A stretch of DNA of 64,000 nt from a virus (taxonomy: Duplodnaviria > Caudoviricetes), in the IMG/VR virus record IMGVR_UViG_3300011339_000106, positions 1,489-65,488 of that record; one strand, 5' to 3'. Position numbers and translations under genes: made by a program. How positions within the stretch are numbered: position 1 is the stretch's first letter; each line of letters begins with the position of its first letter. Below the pieces are notes generated by a model, which saw only the letters and a program-made list of their open reading frames with translations, was not told where the DNA came from and ran no database searches. Below, in pieces: positions 2,722 through 44,156 of the stretch.

Positions 2722-4580
2722 CTTGTTCCAGATCTGCCATCAGGCTTGATATCGATTCGCGGACTGCCAAGCTGCCAAGCAACACCTAAGTCCTCAGAAG
2801 CTACCTTGATAGCCATCTGTCTACCACGCACCCGAATGTTGACCTGCCCAGTGAACTGCTCAATCGGCACCGTGGCGATACGCGTAACCGGCCTGTTGTC
2901 TGAGCCACCCAGCGAAGCGGGGCTGTTGTAGCCCGAGCCGGAGTTCTGCAGAGGAAGCAGCGTCAGGATAGCCTGCGGCGAAGCCGCGCTTGACCCACGG
3001 AACGTGATGTCCGGTAGCACCCGCCAGACGAAACCAAAGTTGTGCCCGTCATCAATATCGAACTCAGCCGAGGTGATGTACGCAGAAATCGCCACAGGCG
3101 TGCCGTTGGAGTTGTCATCAACCCCCACTTCTTGATACAGCAAACGGTTGTTATACGCCGAGATTGGGTATGTACTGATGATGCTGGAGTCAATCCAGGC
3201 AGTACGGGTCATGGTGCCGTAGTACCAGATCTTTTCCACAAAGTTGTAAACAACGTACTTGTCAGGCGAAGTGCTATTGGCCGAGCAGTAGAACCACCAT
3301 ATTTCATTGAACTGGCTGACGGTAGCCGCGAAGATCTGTTGCGTCTGTTCAAAGTTGAAGTCGCTAAACACGTACTGCCGCAGATCGCAGGGTAGCGTGT
3401 TTACACGCCCGTCGTAGGTGTAGAACTTCTCCTGCCCCATCCAATACGTCACGCCAGAGGAGGTGACCATAGCGCGGTCACTGACGATGGAGACGTTGTC
3501 GGACAGAAGCTGAGAGCCCCAGACAATCGGAGGCCCAAGGTACTGCAGGGAGTAGAGCGAGGTGTCCGTCCAGACCAGAATTTCCTGTCGGACCTGCGCC
3601 ACGGCTTCGATGGTCGAGCCGTGGGACAAACGCACACTACCCGCTTGGTTGGTCGCTGCCGGGGTCCAGTTGGTGGCGCTCTCCTGATCGCTCCAGCGGA
3701 TCAGCATCGTGTCTTGGATGACCGAGCCGTAGTCGTTGCACCCGAAGGCCAGCACAAAGCGTGAGGTATCAGAGACCAGCAACGCGGTCTGGATGGTCGG
3801 GACATCGGAGGCACCAGACAACGAATCAAGCGCCACACCACGCGCACTCAAACCTGTGGTTGCGTCCCAGTAGTACATCGGACCGTTCTTGGGGCCGAAG
3901 ATCAGGTCTTCACCGAAGTTGTTGTGGTTCCAGATGCGAAGCGGGATGGTGTTGCTACCACCAGTACCCCAGGAGCCAGCGCCCCAAGCACCCGCGCCCC
4001 AGCCGAAGGCAGGTGTTTCAATCGCGCCGCCCACATTGACCTGATATGCGGCAGTGACCGTGCCACCGCCCCCAGGAGGCTGCGTGACCGTGGACGAAGC
4101 GTTGCTGGCTGCAGTGATGGTGTAGTTGTCTGCATCTACAACCGTGACTTGGTACTCACCAGAGATGGTCAGCCCGCCCACAGCAGCGGTGCTGGTGAAC
4201 GTGACGAAGTCGCCCGTAAGGCACCCGTGCGCTACATCTTTGACGCCAACTGTAGGGAGGCCGCTTGTGGTTGAGAACGGATCGGTCAGTGTGGCAGTGC
4301 CGCGCAAGGGCGTGACATCGTTATAGCCACCGCCGTACTGGATGTAGTACTTGAGGTTGGTCCCCATGCCGAGGTAGTTACCGGCACCCAGCGTAGACCA
4401 CGGCCACAGCGAGCGGCACGTACCTTGAAACGTAGCTGACGAAATACGCTCCCACCCGCCAATCTTTTCAGGTGTGCCATAACGGAAGCGAATCTTGTCG
4501 CAGTCATACCAGCCGTTTTCGTTCGTGTAGCGCGTATTTTCCCGGTTCACCCCCGGGCGCATCTGCAGCTTTTTCAGCAC
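2718..4580 (-). CDS. Tail tubular protein B / packaged-DNA stabilisation (nozzle) protein
   Basis: 620 aa beta-rich; N-terminus PGVNRENT..GWYDCDKIRF...PEKIGGW typical of podoviral nozzle proteins; position after lysis genes. Confidence 0.7.
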   Translation of the reverse strand: MLKKLQMRPGVNRENTRYTNENGWYDCDKIRFRYGTPEKIGGWERISSATFQGTCRSLWPWSTLGAGNYLGMGTNLKYYIQYGGGYNDVTPLRGTATLTDPFSTTSGLPTVGVKDVAHGCLTGDFVTFTSTAAVGGLTISGEYQVTVVDADNYTITAASNASSTVTQPPGGGGTVTAAYQVNVGGAIETPAFGWGAGAWGAGSWGTGGSNTIPLRIWNHNNFGEDLIFGPKNGPMYYWDATTGLSARGVALDSLSGASDVPTIQTALLVSDTSRFVLAFGCNDYGSVIQDTMLIRWSDQESATNWTPAATNQAGSVRLSHGSTIEAVAQVRQEILVWTDTSLYSLQYLGPPIVWGSQLLSDNVSIVSDRAMVTSSGVTYWMGQEKFYTYDGRVNTLPCDLRQYVFSDFNFEQTQQIFAATVSQFNEIWWFYCSANSTSPDKYVVYNFVEKIWYYGTMTRTAWIDSSIISTYPISAYNNRLLYQEVGVDDNSNGTPVAISAYITSAEFDIDDGHNFGFVWRVLPDITFRGSSAASPQAILTLLPLQNSGSGYNSPASLGGSDNRPVTRIATVPIEQFTGQVNIRVRGRQMAIKVASEDLGVAWQLGSPRIDIKPDGRSGTR

Positions 4581-5143
4581 AACGACACCTCGTACTTGTT
4601 TGTTTTGCGCTGATTATCTAACCAAGGAATTACCTGCAAATTTTGAGGTACGTGTAGCCCAGACACATTTTTGCCGCGCAGTGGCAGTATGTGGTCAACG
4701 TGATGCTTAACGCCTGTTGCCGCAGTGCGAAGCATGGCTAGAACATACGCCTCAGATATAACCCAGTAATCATCCTCAGTTAGCCACTTTGGTGTTCTGC
4801 GCATCAACGCAATTTTTCTTTTTTGGCACAAGTACGCAAAACGCTCTTTGTTTTGTTCCCGATAACTTTTGCTGTAGCTTGCTACATGCTCTTTATTCTT
4901 TTCTCGCCACTCAAGCATATAAGCAGCCCGTTGCTGCTGTGTCCTGTCCCTATATTCCTTTTTCCAGGCAAGTTCTTTTGCTTTAAGGTCAGAGTTTGAC
5001 CGGTTCTTTATCTTCCTAGCGATATTGTCCGCCTTGTGGCACTCAATACAAAAAGTGTTGACTCCGTCCTTCATGCGCTTGTTTGCATAAAAAAGACTTG
5101 TGTCTTTTTCCTGGCGACATTTACTGCAGATCTTGAGTGGCAT
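4574..5143 (-). CDS. Free-standing HNH homing endonuclease with N-terminal Zn ribbon
   Basis: CSKC...CIEC, and HHVDHILPLRGKNVSGLHVPQNLQVI...N; more AT-rich than flanking genes. Confidence 0.85.
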   Translation of the reverse strand: MPLKICSKCRQEKDTSLFYANKRMKDGVNTFCIECHKADNIARKIKNRSNSDLKAKELAWKKEYRDRTQQQRAAYMLEWREKNKEHVASYSKSYREQNKERFAYLCQKRKIALMRRTPKWLTEDDYWVISEAYVLAMLRTAATGVKHHVDHILPLRGKNVSGLHVPQNLQVIPWLDNQRKTNKYEVSLC

Positions 5144-39421: not shown

Positions 39422-39643
39422 ATGAACGCAAACGACACAATGGTCGGCGGCGACCACTACAAGCGCCACAAGTACGAGACCTGGGATGTCATCCTCGACT
39501 GGCAACTCGGCTACCTTGATGGAAATGCCGTTAAGTACCTGAGTCGCTGGCGACTCAAGGGCGGCGTGCAAGACCTGAAGAAGGCAGCGCACTACATCCA
39601 AAAACTGATTGAAGTGGAAGAAGCAAATGGCAAGAACTCCTGA
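39422..39643 (+). CDS. DUF3310 (SaV-like) protein
   Basis: VGGDHY...ETWD...GYL.GNAVKYL.R...KGG.QDL.KA.HY. Confidence 0.9.
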   Translation: MNANDTMVGGDHYKRHKYETWDVILDWQLGYLDGNAVKYLSRWRLKGGVQDLKKAAHYIQKLIEVEEANGKNS

Positions 39644-40013
39644 GAATGCCGTGAAAGCAAAATGTGTAGAGGTGATTAAAAAGTACAAAGCCTACTACTT
39701 CTTCCCTGCACAGAATGGCTACGGCATTTCCGGAACTTTTGACATCTGCTGCGTGCTCAACGGGTATTTCATAGGCATCGAGTGCAAAGCCACTTCCAAA
39801 AGCCGCCCAACCGGATTACAATCCCGCAATGCGGCCAAAACATTGGCAGCGGGGGCCCCGGTTCTTCTGATTCACGCAGAAAACACGGGCGTGTTGGATG
39901 CCTTACTCGGAAAGATTGCAAATGAAAAAACCGCTGGATTTGACGGGGCAAGTGTTTGGCCGTTTGACGGTGTTGTCGGAGGACACACTAACGGCGGTGG
40001 GGAAGCGTCGTAG
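39627..40013 (+). CDS. VRR-NUC / PD-(D/E)XK nuclease, copy 1
   Basis: TPE..VK...YYFFP..NGYG.SG.FDI...G.FIGIECKA...PT.LQ. Confidence 0.8.
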   Translation: MARTPENAVKAKCVEVIKKYKAYYFFPAQNGYGISGTFDICCVLNGYFIGIECKATSKSRPTGLQSRNAAKTLAAGAPVLLIHAENTGVLDALLGKIANEKTAGFDGASVWPFDGVVGGHTNGGGEAS

Positions 40014-40704
40014 GTGGCACTGTGCCTGCCTTTGCGGAACGTCTAAGTCTGTCGGCCAGCAAGAGCTTCTGAACGGGCAAGCGCGTTCGTGCGGGTGTAT
40101 ACGCAAAGAACAACTACGTACCAGAAATACTATACATGGAGCCTCTCCTAGAAACGCCGAGACCTATACGTATAAGAAATGGAAGGGTATGCACCGCCGT
40201 ATAAAAGACACAGACAAACCAAAAAACGAATTCTATAAAAACGTGCACGTTATCCCCCGATGGGAGACATATGAAAACTTCTTGGCTGACATGGGGGAGT
40301 GCCCTCCTGGCTACTCCTTAGACCGTATAGATAACGCCAAAGATTATGGACCCGATAATTGCCGTTGGGTTCCCCTATTCGATCAGGCGGCTAATACTTC
40401 GCGTAACCGGGTAGTGACAATAGACGGTGCTACAAAGCATATATCCGCCTTGGCACGAGAAGCAGGTCTGCACCCAGACGTTGTGTTTGATCGAATCAAC
40501 AAACTTGGTTGGGACGTAGAACGCGCATTGCAGACCGTTAAGGTAAAAACTAAAACAAAAATAACACCAGAGATGGTGCAGGCAATGCTGCGTTTGAGTG
40601 CGGCAGGTGAATCGCAGTACGTTATTGCCAAACAGCTAGGGCTGTCTCAGGGTGGCGTGTCTTTGACACTTAAACGGTATAAAGGAAACAACCGCAATGA
40701 CTAA
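39922..40704 (+). CDS. Free-standing HNH homing endonuclease
   Basis: LTGQVFGRLTV, WHCAC.CG, SCGC, W..YENFLADMG..P...SLDRIDN...Y.PDNCRW. Confidence 0.9.
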   Translation: MKKPLDLTGQVFGRLTVLSEDTLTAVGKRRRWHCACLCGTSKSVGQQELLNGQARSCGCIRKEQLRTRNTIHGASPRNAETYTYKKWKGMHRRIKDTDKPKNEFYKNVHVIPRWETYENFLADMGECPPGYSLDRIDNAKDYGPDNCRWVPLFDQAANTSRNRVVTIDGATKHISALAREAGLHPDVVFDRINKLGWDVERALQTVKVKTKTKITPEMVQAMLRLSAAGESQYVIAKQLGLSQGGVSLTLKRYKGNNRND

Positions 40705-40981
40705 AGAATCAGAAGTTGTAGCGCAAGTAGAACGCATACTGCGTAAATACAAGGCGTACTACACAAAACAAAAAGGTGTAGGTGTTGTAGACATCATCGT
40801 GTGCTATCGAGGCATGTTCTTGGGTGTAGAATGCAAGGCAGGCTTTAACAAGCCTACGCTGCTACAAGAGCGTGAGATGGCAGACATCCACAAAGCCGGG
40901 GGCTCGGCTATGGTGGTGCGTGAAGACACCCTTGAACTGCTGGAAGAGTGGTTCGCAGAGAGGCAAGCATGGGCACAGTAA
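40697..40981 (+). CDS. VRR-NUC / PD-(D/E)XK nuclease, copy 2
   Basis: ESEV...GVVDIIVCYRG.FLGVECKA...KPTLLQ.RE...I.KAGG.A.VV. Confidence 0.8.
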   Translation: MTKESEVVAQVERILRKYKAYYTKQKGVGVVDIIVCYRGMFLGVECKAGFNKPTLLQEREMADIHKAGGSAMVVREDTLELLEEWFAERQAWAQ

Positions 40982-41277
40982 GCAATGAAGAGAGCGTGGC
41001 TGCACGCCTCGAAATGATCGACATGATGGAGCAGATTGCTGAGCTTCACAAAGACGAAGCGGATCAGTTCATCCGCGCCATCCTCATGGTGGGTAGCTGT
41101 TTCTTGAACAAAAAGAACCACGGTGTGTTCTGTCTTGTTGAGGACGAGGCTATGCTCAAGATCATGGGGGTGAATTCGTCGCTACACGAGACGGGGCACA
41201 TCGTCACACAGGCTGCAGAGATGTTGATCACAAACCTGCACGCCAACGACCTACATAGAAAAGGAGAAACACATTGA
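40969..41277 (+). CDS. Hypothetical protein upstream of DNA polymerase
   Basis: 102 aa acidic helical, coupled to polA. Confidence 0.7.
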   Translation: MGTVSNEESVAARLEMIDMMEQIAELHKDEADQFIRAILMVGSCFLNKKNHGVFCLVEDEAMLKIMGVNSSLHETGHIVTQAAEMLITNLHANDLHRKGETH

Positions 41278-44156
41278 GCAACAACGCGCCATACGACCGC
41301 ATAGTGGTCATCGACTTCGAAACGGCTTGGTCTCGATCCGAGTACACGCTCAGCAAGATGACCACCGAAGAGTACGTACGTGATCCCCGCTTTAAGGCAT
41401 GGGGTTTGTGTTGGAAGGAAGTGGGCACCGATGAGATCCCGGTATGGGTACGCGGCGACCGCATCAGGCGCTGGGCAGTGAGCATCGACTGGTCTCGCAC
41501 AGCCATCCTCGCGCACAACGCACAGTTCGATGTGACCATCCTGTCCTGGGTCTACGGCGTCAAGCCTGCGTTCATCTTCGACACCCTCAGCATGGCCCGC
41601 GCACTGCGTGGCGTGGAGGTGGGCAACAGTCTGGCTACGCTGGCTGAAGCGTTCGAGCTACCACCCAAGGGCAAGGCGGTGCACTCAACCGATGGCCTGC
41701 TGGACTCGATTCCGTTCCACGTTGAGCAAGAACTTGCCGACTACTGCAGGCATGACACGTACCTGTGTGAGCAGATCTTCCTGCGCTTGATCGAGGGCTA
41801 CCCAACCAAGGAGTTGAAGCTCATCGACATGACGCTCAAGATGTACACCAACCCGCTGCTGGTGCTGGACAAGGAGCTGCTGGCACAGGCCATCGAGGAA
41901 GAAAGGATTGCACGTGAAGGTCTGCTCCGCAGGCTTGGACTGCAAGAGGCTGCGCTGGCTTCAAACCAACAGTTTGCAGAAGTACTAAAGGCTTTTGGCG
42001 TAGCCCCGCCGACTAAGACGAGTAAGACAACAGGCGAAGAAACGCTTGCGCTTGCCAAGAACGATGCTCACTTCCAAGCCCTCCTCAATCATGAGAATGA
42101 GGCTGTTGCTCTGTTGTGCGAAGCCCGACTGAAGGTCAAGAGCACCAGCGAGCGCACGCGTGCACAGCGCTTCCTCGACATCGCAGAGCGCGGCTCACTC
42201 CCGGTGCCACTGAGTTACTACGGTGCAGCCACAGGCCGGTGGACAGCAGCCAAGGGTAGCGCGATCAACATGCAGAACCTCAAGCGTGGAAGCTTCCTGC
42301 GCAAGGCCATCATGGCCCCTGAGGGTTATGTCATCGCCGTGGGTGACCTCTCGCAGATCGAGCCTCGGGTGCTTGCATGGCTGGCCGACTATGACAACCT
42401 GCTCGACATCTTCCGCTCAGGCGGAGACCCCTACGCCCAGTTCGGTGCGCAGATGTTCAACCTCCCCGGCATGACCAAGGACAGCCATCCGACGCAAAGG
42501 CAAAGCGCAAAGTCCGCCCTTCTGGGTTGCTTCGGAGGCAATACGCCTGTACTTACACAAAGGGGCTGGGTTATCATTCAGGATGTTTTGCCGGAGGACA
42601 GGGTATGGGACGGGCTGGAGTGGGTGACGCATCAGGGGGTGGTGCCACAAGGGGAGAAGGACGTTCTGACAGCGTATGGGATAAGCGTAACTTCGGACCA
42701 CGAAATCCTGACGGAACATGGGTGGGAGGAGTGGAGCGCGGTCCTAGCCGACCCTTCCCTTTTCCAGTCGGCACGGTCTTTGGCGAACTTACTTGCTTGG
42801 ACTGGCGCAGGCACACAGGAGGGCCTGAATGGCGGCGTTGTTCCATGTACCAGCCGTACATGCGCTGCTCCTGCGGATGGGAAGGCTTCGTTACACGCGC
42901 CAACTTGCGTGGGGGGAGAACTACCCGCTGCAACGCGTGCGCCAAAAAGAAGTCACATGCAACGCGCATGGCAAGGCTCGGCTTTGAGCAGGTTTGTCCA
43001 GATGCTGCACACCGCGACCGGCTACTTGACCGCATCAGTGCAATCGTTGTGCGTTGCACCAAGTCAAAAAGCGCAACGTATCCGGACTATGGTGGTCGGG
43101 GCATCACGGTTCATCCGGCATGGGTTGAAAACCGCATCGAATTCTTGCGCTACCTCGTTAGCCTCGATGGCTGGGATCAGCCCGCGCTTCAACTCGACCG
43201 CATCGATAACAACGGCGGTTACGTACCCGGCAATCTTCGATTCGTTACGCGCAGTGAGAACATGGCGAACAAGCGCCGGATTACTGCCCGAGAAGTCGAA
43301 GCCCTCAAGCAACGCATCGCCGTTCTTGAGGCAGAGAATGCAGACCTACGACATCGCTTACGCAGGGCCGAGGAACCGCTACACGATTTTGACTGACGCG
43401 GGGCCGCTCATCGTTCACAACTGCGGCTACCAGCTAGGCTGGGCATCGTTCGCGGCTCAGCTTCTCACCGGCTTCCTCGGCGCACCACCCAAGCGCTATA
43501 CCAAGGAGGAGGCCAAGCAGTTGGGCGTGACCGGCGCTGAGGTGCAGAAGTTCCTGTCCTGGGATGAGAACATCAAGAAGATGGCCGAGATCCCCCACAC
43601 CTGCACCGAGCTTGAACTGGGCATCCACTGCCTCGCGGCCAAGGCCATCATCGACAAGTACCGCGCTGCGTCTGCGCCTGTCGTGGCGTTCTGGGAACTG
43701 ATGGGGCAGCTTATCGAGCACAGCCTGTATAAGGGCAAGGAATACACCCATAAGTGTCTGACCTTCCGCAAGGGCGAAATCGTCTTGCCAAGTGGTATGA
43801 GTGTGAGGTATCCTGACCTCCGCCCGGATCAGGATGAGAAGGGCCGAGTCCAGTGGTCGTACGCTGACGGCAAAGACGGCAAGCGCACGAAGCTCTACGC
43901 GGGCAAGGTCACCAACAACGTGGTCCAAGGCACGGCGCGATGCGTCATGACGGACGGGATGCTGCGAATAGGAAAGCGGTATCCGGTCTGTGGAACCGTG
44001 CACGATGAGGCGCTATGCGTAGCGCCCGAGAGTGAAGCGACTGAGGCCAAAGAGTACCTTCTGGCCTGCATGACCATTGAGCCGAAGTACATGCCAGGAA
44101 TCCCGCTCGCTGCCGATGGTGGCGTGCACAAACGATACGGACTTGCTAAAGGATGA
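41274..44156 (+). CDS. polA: Family A DNA polymerase with 3'-5' exonuclease, intein-containing
   Basis: IDFET (ExoI), AHNAQFD (ExoII), YYGAATGRW, NMQNL, DLSQIEPR (motif A), K..LLG-intein-CGY (motif B), NNVVQG, VHDE (motif C). Confidence 0.95.
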   Translation: MSNNAPYDRIVVIDFETAWSRSEYTLSKMTTEEYVRDPRFKAWGLCWKEVGTDEIPVWVRGDRIRRWAVSIDWSRTAILAHNAQFDVTILSWVYGVKPAFIFDTLSMARALRGVEVGNSLATLAEAFELPPKGKAVHSTDGLLDSIPFHVEQELADYCRHDTYLCEQIFLRLIEGYPTKELKLIDMTLKMYTNPLLVLDKELLAQAIEEERIAREGLLRRLGLQEAALASNQQFAEVLKAFGVAPPTKTSKTTGEETLALAKNDAHFQALLNHENEAVALLCEARLKVKSTSERTRAQRFLDIAERGSLPVPLSYYGAATGRWTAAKGSAINMQNLKRGSFLRKAIMAPEGYVIAVGDLSQIEPRVLAWLADYDNLLDIFRSGGDPYAQFGAQMFNLPGMTKDSHPTQRQSAKSALLGCFGGNTPVLTQRGWVIIQDVLPEDRVWDGLEWVTHQGVVPQGEKDVLTAYGISVTSDHEILTEHGWEEWSAVLADPSLFQSARSLANLLAWTGAGTQEGLNGGVVPCTSRTCAAPADGKASLHAPTCVGGELPAATRAPKRSHMQRAWQGSALSRFVQMLHTATGYLTASVQSLCVAPSQKAQRIRTMVVGASRFIRHGLKTASNSCATSLASMAGISPRFNSTASITTAVTYPAIFDSLRAVRTWRTSAGLLPEKSKPSSNASPFLRQRMQTYDIAYAGPRNRYTILTDAGPLIVHNCGYQLGWASFAAQLLTGFLGAPPKRYTKEEAKQLGVTGAEVQKFLSWDENIKKMAEIPHTCTELELGIHCLAAKAIIDKYRAASAPVVAFWELMGQLIEHSLYKGKEYTHKCLTFRKGEIVLPSGMSVRYPDLRPDQDEKGRVQWSYADGKDGKRTKLYAGKVTNNVVQGTARCVMTDGMLRIGKRYPVCGTVHDEALCVAPESEATEAKEYLLACMTIEPKYMPGIPLAADGGVHKRYGLAKG
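42528..43421 (+). mobile_element. Intein (298 aa) inserted in PolA motif B
   Basis: Starts CFGGNTPVLT..GW..I (block A), has TSDHEILT (block B), YDI...R (block F) and IVHN followed by C+1 (block G). Removing it restores AKSALLG-CGYQLG. Confidence 0.92.
42731..43396 (+). CDS. HNH homing endonuclease nested in an alternative frame inside the intein
   Basis: Frame differs from PolA. GTVFGELT, CSCG, RCNAC, YPDYGGRGITV...W, LDRIDNNGGYVPGNLRFVTRSENMANKR. Start uncertain (GTG 42731 or 42722). Confidence 0.88.
   Translation: MERGPSRPFPFPVGTVFGELTCLDWRRHTGGPEWRRCSMYQPYMRCSCGWEGFVTRANLRGGRTTRCNACAKKKSHATRMARLGFEQVCPDAAHRDRLLDRISAIVVRCTKSKSATYPDYGGRGITVHPAWVENRIEFLRYLVSLDGWDQPALQLDRIDNNGGYVPGNLRFVTRSENMANKRRITAREVEALKQRIAVLEAENADLRHRLRRAEEPLHDFD

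Follow-up and report, generated by a model that had tools for sequence, protein, structure and literature searches.

The window analysed here is a 64-kb stretch (positions 1,489 to 65,488) of the 65.5-kb virus record IMGVR_UViG_3300011339_000106, which is rated 100% complete. It carries a gene for a family-A DNA polymerase (PolA) that contains an intein, and within the intein, in a different reading frame, lies an open reading frame (ORF) for a predicted homing endonuclease (Table 1). The PolA ORF is open from end to end, through the intein as well, as a single 960-aa frame. Pfam recognises PF00476 (E=1.2e-22) and PF01612 (E=7.6e-5) in it, and the polymerase match is interrupted at amino acid (aa) 419. 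A first-pass annotation, made from the letters, had placed a 298-aa intein in PolA motif B. Both junctions can indeed be read where it put them, SAKSALLG/CFGGNTPVLT on the N side and PLIVHN/CGYQLGW on the C side (slashes mark the splice points), which delimits the intein to 42528..43421 exactly.

Table 1. Coordinates of the polymerase gene, its intein, the nested gene and a related free-standing gene in the window
Feature	Position	Strand	Remarks
DNA polymerase I (family A) precursor ORF	41274..44156	+	960 aa; program-assigned TTG start; 3'-5' exonuclease and polymerase domains
Class-1 intein	42528..43421	+	298 aa; in PolA motif B, RQSAKSALLG/C…HN/CGYQLGW
N-terminal splicing domain	42528..42791	+	Intein aa 1-88; block A Cys1, block B TSDH; kept in 17 loci
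Polymerase-frame filler	42792..43316	+	Intein aa 89-263; stop-free, amino acids not conserved, predicted unstructured
C-terminal splicing domain	43317..43421	+	Blocks F and G, TYDIAYAGPRNRYTIL…LIVHN; conserved in alignment; part of HINT match
GGAGG, Shine-Dalgarno-like	42593..42597	+	7 nt upstream of ATG 42605; within polymerase codons P-E-D; sequence match only
Nested endonuclease gene, likeliest extent	42605..43396	+	ATG 42605 to TGA 43394-43396, 263 aa; other candidate starts GTG 42620, 42722, 42731
Conserved endonuclease core	42770..43282	+	G.LT motif, CxC…CxxC zinc motif, YGGRGI, LDRID…GY.PGNLRF…N..N.R
C-terminal helical/coiled-coil tail of nested protein	43289..43393	+	Helix 191-219 in model, weak bZIP-like match; overlaps intein block F in other frame
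Free-standing paralogue, same endonuclease family	39898..40704	+	268 aa, C-terminal helix-turn-helix; phrog_374 E=1.2e-51

No intein model of Pfam or NCBIfam matches the window intein; it and the nested nuclease were recognised through PHROGs, structure prediction and alignment. Across the intein alignment C1 is invariant, as are T55 and H58 of the block B motif TSDH (aa 55-58) and the C-terminal residues H297 and N298, while the +1 residue, Cys in the window, is Cys or Ser across all 20 aligned loci. An AlphaFold2 model built from a 17-sequence alignment reaches a predicted local distance difference test score (pLDDT) of >90 for aa 1-88 and 264-298, and of ~30 for aa 89-263. The confident parts form a HINT fold, with Z scores of 14.9 to the Mtu RecA intein (117 aa aligned, root-mean-square deviation (rmsd) 2.4), 14.5 to Npu DnaB, 14.1 to the DnaX mini-intein and 14.0 to gp41-1. 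The top alignments cover about 115 aa at rmsd 2.0-2.7, and all 33 structural matches are inteins or HINT proteins. The invariant residues and the modelled fold agree with the first-pass view that the splicing blocks are intact, and the non-conserved, stop-free centre of low pLDDT with its view that the polymerase frame there encodes filler. As blocks A, B, F and G are intact and the host gene is the phage's replicative polymerase, an essential gene, the intein presumably still splices, filler included.

The nested frame has a -1 (+2) offset to the polymerase frame. It runs without a stop from 42395 up to the TGA at 43394-43396, with a listed ORF of 289 aa (42527..43396), and its stop falls 25 nt short of the intein end, within the C-terminal splicing region; both the open frame and the overlap with intein block F are thus as the first-pass annotation described them. 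Its product matches the PHROG 'HNH endonuclease' phrog_374 (E=1.5e-31 over aa 82-252) and, in all, five HNH/endonuclease PHROGs, among them phrog_2081 (6.4e-21) and phrog_3377 (1.1e-20); an 'endonuclease VII' PHROG is a secondary match (E=4.5e-10). An alignment of nine nested proteins has 44 invariant columns, including CxC…CxxC, YG.RGI and DR.D…Y.PGN.RF…N..N.R. The motifs CSCG, RCNAC, YGGRGI, LDRIDNNGGY, GNLRFV and N..NKR that had been picked out by eye fall in invariant or nearly invariant columns of the family. The Cys4 pattern CxC…CxxC, a putative structural zinc site, is invariant in 29 of 29 sequences. The AlphaFold2 model of the nested protein has a mean pLDDT of 90.7.

Conservation of the layout and selection on the two frames

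A tblastn search with the nested protein against GenBank phages returned matches within the DNA polymerase genes of EBPR siphovirus 2, Pseudomonas phage MR14, Vibrio phage 97.13, many Salmonella Jerseyviruses and Shigella EP23; blastn of the whole polA against the same phages gave no match. In the three GenBank records inspected, the nested match lies at offset 2 from the annotated polymerase coding sequence (CDS) and both frames are open. Two IMG/VR scans added 17 PolA loci with the same frame offset. The 21-locus PolA set used below consists of the window, L001-L019 and L038 and covers divergent phages from isolates and metagenomes; it takes in EBPR siphovirus 2, Pseudomonas MR14, Salmonella Jerseyviruses and 16 contigs from metagenomes. 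All 21 loci share the architecture and the -1 offset, so the double-open arrangement is conserved among PolA inteins of phage isolates and viral metagenomes. Together with the existence of free-standing homologues, this supports the first-pass proposal that an HNH gene of free-standing type is nested out of frame in the intein.

Beneath the endonuclease match, the polymerase frame has 0 stops in about 4600 codons across the 21 loci, and the third frame has 7-29 stops per locus; the host frame is thus kept stop-free over the nested gene, as had been suggested. By comparison, not one of 60 free-standing homologues is without a stop in the equivalent frame, where stops average 4.5 per 100 codons. 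When the endonuclease's synonymous codons were shuffled, the polymerase frame stayed stop-free in 0-12% of trials per locus, and in 6.3% for the window. On its own, the window's open polymerase frame is unusual by a narrow margin only, and it is the cross-locus comparison that is decisive.

This layout might be mimicked if the endonuclease were truly an in-frame intein domain, displaced in the window contig by two compensating sequencing or assembly indels. The window by itself would leave some room for that, given the 6.3% of shuffles that are also stop-free, and one database record, that of Salmonella phage SS3e, does carry two 1-nt insertions in the intein region. The same offset, though, recurs in 21 independent loci from isolates and metagenomes, the third frame is rich in stops where both other frames are clean, and in four runs Logan contigs span the region, with 0 gaps and no indels listed. 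Two of these contigs (X1, X4) may represent the source sample and two (X7, X9) come from other samples or studies, so the check for compensating frameshifts, independent of the source in two runs, turned up none. On the offset in 21 loci, the frame-stop counts and the indel-free contigs, we exclude sequencing error as an explanation and give it virtually no weight.

The SS3e record itself (L171, NC_006940.2, 407-3507) is annotated with three CDS, polymerase, HNH endonuclease and polymerase. Compared with vB_SenS-Ent1, to which it is 97% identical, its two 1-nt insertions join part of the N-intein to the endonuclease frame; they are probably sequencing errors of an early record. The vB_SenS-Ent1 record labels its PolA intein as 'encoding splicing domains' only. 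In the same phage, a helicase intein (L003:4565-5540) bears the annotation of a LAGLIDADG endonuclease in frame, so that canonical and out-of-frame inteins occur in one phage. At L038 (760-4770), a 1337-aa PolA carries a related intein at a third position (…LGLGY/CHAADTLILT…); the nested ORF is shortened to 138 aa, the polymerase is otherwise open, and the nested endonuclease may be a decaying copy.

Selection on the two frames was compared over the intein centre by the Nei-Gojobori ratio of non-synonymous to synonymous substitution rates (dN/dS) in 70 pairs, with dS mostly saturated. Wherever dS was finite, the endonuclease frame gave 0.08-0.33, whereas the polymerase-frame centre gave 0.9-2.0, the same as the non-coding third frame. 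Calculated for both frames as the first-pass annotation had proposed, dN/dS thus reveals constraint on the endonuclease and, in the filler, values like those of non-coding sequence, and the likeness to the third frame indicates that the intein centre is kept stop-free only. One could argue that the nested ORF is a dead remnant, with selection acting on the openness of the polymerase frame only and the intein immobile and vertically inherited. The 138-aa ORF of L038 would fit this, as would the missing canonical catalytic His and the lack of a co-conversion signal in the window's flanks, both taken up below. We consider it improbable nonetheless, as the low dN/dS of the HNH frame holds across lineages with saturated synonymous sites, the nested frame is without stops in 20 of the 21 loci, the 44 invariant columns take in the four Cys as well as the DR.D…GY.PGN.RF core, the model of the nested protein is confident, and the intein is sporadically distributed among close relatives.

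Start and proposed translation of the nested gene

To locate the start of the nested gene, stops in the endonuclease frame over the N-terminal intein were counted in 20 loci together and set against those obtained when the polymerase frame was shuffled synonymously. Intein codons 1-31 have 32 stops where 35.4 are expected. Codons 32-65 have 1 (13.9 expected) and codons 66-85 have 0 (3.9 expected), whereas the third frame has 76 stops in codons 32-65 (71.5 expected). By these counts, the endonuclease frame starts to avoid stops at the second Trp of a conserved W-D-G-x-E-W motif, at about codon 32. The codon of this Trp and the one before it together spell ATG or GTG in every locus read (GTG 42620 in the window), and in six loci the HNH frame opens at most one codon from an ATG or GTG near codon 31, with a stop directly before. 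In the window, an ATG at 42605 lies five codons upstream of GTG 42620 and is preceded by the Shine-Dalgarno-like GGAGG. The nested gene most likely starts near ATG 42605 (or at GTG 42620), which would make it a 263-aa gene spanning 42605..43396. With a start at ATG 42605, it shares about 55 codons with the N-terminal splicing domain and about 25 with block F. The GTG at 42731 proposed in the first-pass annotation is probably too far downstream, because stops are already avoided from about codon 32.

The signal is less regular from locus to locus. Start codons do not keep a fixed position. In L009, a stop follows codon 32, and this locus has to start farther on; in L003, no codon that could serve as a start is present at the downstream candidate position; and the NTG candidates arise as a by-product of conserved Trp codons. 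That downstream candidate, a second Trp-derived NTG ('W2', window 42722), is start-capable in 16 of 17 loci, for which a hand estimate at four-fold sites gives a P of about 0.1, not significant. A look for RNA runs holding this stretch listed none.

The endonuclease might also be reached by programmed -1 frameshifting from the polymerase frame, which would yield a fusion of N-extein, N-intein and HNH domain or, if the ribosome shifted back again, an ordinary intein-HNH fusion. In favour of this, the nested offset is -1 exactly, stop avoidance from about codon 32 would suit a shift site there as well, the candidate starts are by-products of Trp codons, and most loci have only weak Shine-Dalgarno-like motifs. 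A search of the 20 loci for a conserved -1 slippery heptamer (X XXY YYZ) found none, and programmed frameshifting was set aside for this reason. Moreover, a two-shift model needs no stop-free centre in the polymerase frame, yet that frame is strictly maintained; the opening of the HNH frame within one codon of an ATG or GTG in six loci, at about codon 31, also speaks for a start at that point. The same nuclease family is found at +1 in other inteins (see below), where one frameshift mechanism could not serve both offsets, and its free-standing relatives have starts of their own. Recoding therefore seems very improbable to us, and internal initiation of the nested gene is the best reading of the sequence patterns.

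Mobility, related inteins and the proposed mechanism

For a view of mobility, we surveyed the 80 closest PolA relatives in IMG/VR (L089-L168), which share 71-95% aa identity over the N-extein. The motif-B site is uninterrupted in 78 of them and holds the intein in 2; among relatives at 89-95% identity, the intein is absent from 10 of 10. Such a distribution fits a mobile element, and related intein-less alleles are present on contigs from the same metagenomes. The empty sites read SALLG/CGY… in 45 cases and SALLG/AGY… in 33. An allele with Ala at +1 cannot supply the splicing nucleophile, so a working intein at such a site would be impossible without a change at that residue, and insertion would be lethal; the Ala alleles may reflect resistance to invasion.

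The nuclease family extends well beyond this site. About 60 free-standing homologues of the nested nuclease were found in viral contigs, and homologous inteins occupy two motif-B sites four residues apart, GK./CEL.LG and GK..ELA/CG[FY]. The same family sits at the other offset (+1) in four further inteins, L048, L101, L069 and L055. L048 (1796-4582) is another PolA intein. In L101 (1984-4872), the PolA is 80% identical to that of the window and has no motif-B intein; a ~300-aa intein instead occupies a second PolA site, VTNN/C…HN/CVQGTAR, and its nested ORF (3860-4627) belongs to the family with phrog_374 at E=1.5e-51. L069 (2144-4444) is an intein of a ResIII/DEAD helicase, and L055 (2318-5119) one in a 934-aa protein of unassigned family. 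The family thus occurs in at least five intein contexts, namely PolA motif B (two sites 4 aa apart), the second PolA site, a helicase and the protein of unassigned family, and no in-frame case in an intein was seen among those examined. Two further candidates for in-frame or nested cases, L024 and L065, were rejected: each proved to be a free-standing gene that lies, in high-GC DNA, next to spurious long ORFs. The stop codon that comes with a free-standing gene would, in frame, truncate the host protein, and this may explain the bias towards out-of-frame positions.

A free-standing member also lies in the same phage genome, upstream of polA (Table 1); it is 27% identical to the nested protein (E=6e-7). 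This paralogue sits between two small ORFs, 39609..40013 and 40697..40981, and overlaps the first by 116 nt (the group spans 39609..40981). By eye, the two small ORFs resemble VRR-NUC-type nucleases (…D…ECK…), and the pair may be one gene in two alleles or paralogous copies, on either side of a homing endonuclease gene.

We read the locus as a mobile class-1 intein in PolA motif B whose homing endonuclease is a separate gene overprinted in the -1 frame, and put the probability of this reading at roughly 0.8. Along with the irregular start positions, several results weigh against it. The first His of the HNH motif is replaced by Arg (L-D-R-I-D) without exception in two sets, 9 of 9 and 29 of 29 sequences, so the catalytic competence of the nested nuclease is something we only infer, although the aligned motif of PacI, an HNH restriction enzyme, also reads D-R. 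Among solved structures PacI comes closest to the nested-protein model, but weakly (Z 4.9, 82 aa aligned), and Foldseek gave E 0.55, with no match to the Protein Data Bank (PDB) at E≤0.001. A profile search against PDB sequences gave PacI at E 0.39 (shared DR.D…GY.P.N.R) and I-HmuI at E 0.67. The structural and profile scores are all below significance; phmmer found no match among PDB sequences, and Pfam and NCBIfam gave no HNH match. In these structure and profile searches, neither the N-terminal β-barrel-like part bearing the zinc motif nor the long C-terminal helix had a solved counterpart. The first-pass annotation had called the protein a complete HNH endonuclease; its PHROG matches point to that family, but the canonical first His is absent, and we file the protein as HNH-like (PacI-like) with a variant active site, not as a canonical HNH enzyme. 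Furthermore, a comparison of the ±75-nt extein flanks with intein-plus and intein-minus alleles revealed no co-conversion tract from the sampled intein-bearing alleles. The flanks of the window resemble those of its intein-less nearest relative (L090) rather than the sampled intein-bearing alleles, and a small identity dip at the intein junction is not interpretable; recent transfer is thus not demonstrated.

In the mechanism we propose, ribosomes would read the polymerase frame straight through, producing two HINT halves (aa 1-88 and 264-298) joined by a filler of about 175 residues; for this step the evidence is that of selection on the frame. The intein would then splice itself out, filler included. 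On the same mRNA, internal initiation near intein codon 26-31 (at ATG 42605 with its GGAGG, or at GTG 42620) would give rise to a PacI-like HNH-family nuclease of about 263 aa, with a Cys4 zinc motif and a helical tail, which ends at the TGA 43396 in block F. Judged from the nuclease family and the sporadic distribution, the nuclease would, when relatives co-infect, cut their intein-less polA alleles at the insertion site or close to it, and the intein would be copied in by repair. The arrangement may go back to the invasion of a mini-intein by a free-standing endonuclease gene. Insertion out of frame would have been tolerated, as the invader's stop is invisible to the host frame and only chance stops in the host frame would have had to be purged.

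Known systems and implications

The first-pass annotation knew of no described class with this arrangement, a view overtaken by recent preprints. Gosselin et al. (bioRxiv 2025) describe out-of-frame homing endonucleases (HENs) in inteins of Pol III alpha, minor capsid, terminase and ThyX genes and propose that free-standing HENs invade inteins. As here, those inteins have a same-strand endonuclease ORF between the splicing blocks in frame 3 (= -1), an open host frame with a centre that lacks recognisable structure, an endonuclease related to free-standing phage genes, and the same proposed origin. They differ in intein lineage (theirs start CMTGDTPVLM…), in host genes, as opposed to motif B of a family-A polymerase, and in hosts, which are actinobacteriophages there and Salmonella, Shigella, Pseudomonas and Vibrio phages and river or estuary viruses here; the nuclease here has its 'endonuclease VII' PHROG match in second place only, behind phrog_374. 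Phillips et al. [quoted passage not shown] It describes, like the present case, an intein of a replication gene with an endonuclease in an overlapping frame, a sporadic distribution and a proposed secondary invasion of a mini-intein; it differs in its cellular host, in the gene (Pol III gamma/tau) and in the endonuclease family.

Two other systems are related in part. The ShiLan domain (Arsenault et al. 2025, Genes, PMC11855218) is an out-of-frame HNH in a phage DNA methylase, hidden in another frame of an insertion; the host frame of this insertion has no stops and yields a tolerated loop. ShiLan has no splicing domains and stays in the host protein, whereas the window has intein blocks and a HINT fold, so that its filler is presumably removed. 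In the fractured genes of Dassa et al. (2009, PMC2677866), split inteins have a free-standing endonuclease gene between their halves. The likeness is an unfused endonuclease gene of free-standing type in the endonuclease slot of an intein. There, the host gene consists of two trans-splicing ORFs, whereas here it is not split at the intein, being one frame in the window and continuous in the 20 other loci, and the genes overlap in different frames.

The window intein is thus a member of a recently described kind, with a different intein lineage, host gene and set of phage hosts and an apparently different nuclease family. Our literature search found no paper that treats the PolA motif-B intein of Jerseyviruses and their relatives as an out-of-frame endonuclease intein, and one Jerseyvirus genome paper speaks of inteins in general terms only. 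What is new is the onset of stop avoidance at about intein codon 32 and the gene model refined from it, with a nested start probably near ATG 42605 and an overlap with the N-terminal splicing domain. More tentatively, and with odds we would place somewhat below even, out-of-frame nesting may be a stable, possibly obligatory intein lifestyle of the PacI-like family and not a brief step towards fusion; the N-terminal overlap of ~55 codons would then be truly bifunctional, and translation of the nuclease would set the homing dosage independently of the polymerase dosage.

The out-of-frame endonuclease layout, called rare in the preprints of 2025-26, turns out to be old and widespread in family-A polymerases among phages that infect Gram-negative bacteria. 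Annotation has mostly missed the nested genes or has split the polymerases into several CDS. As the well-studied Salmonella Jerseyviruses are included, tractable laboratory phages are at hand in which it can be tested whether a splicing domain tolerates about 175 junk residues, by what route a gene inside an essential mRNA is translated, and whether homing works with nuclease and intein as separate proteins. The findings support a model of intein evolution in which splicing comes first and the endonuclease invades later, and they suggest a simple reason why the invaders lie out of frame: with an invader in frame, the stop codon it brings would cut the host protein short.

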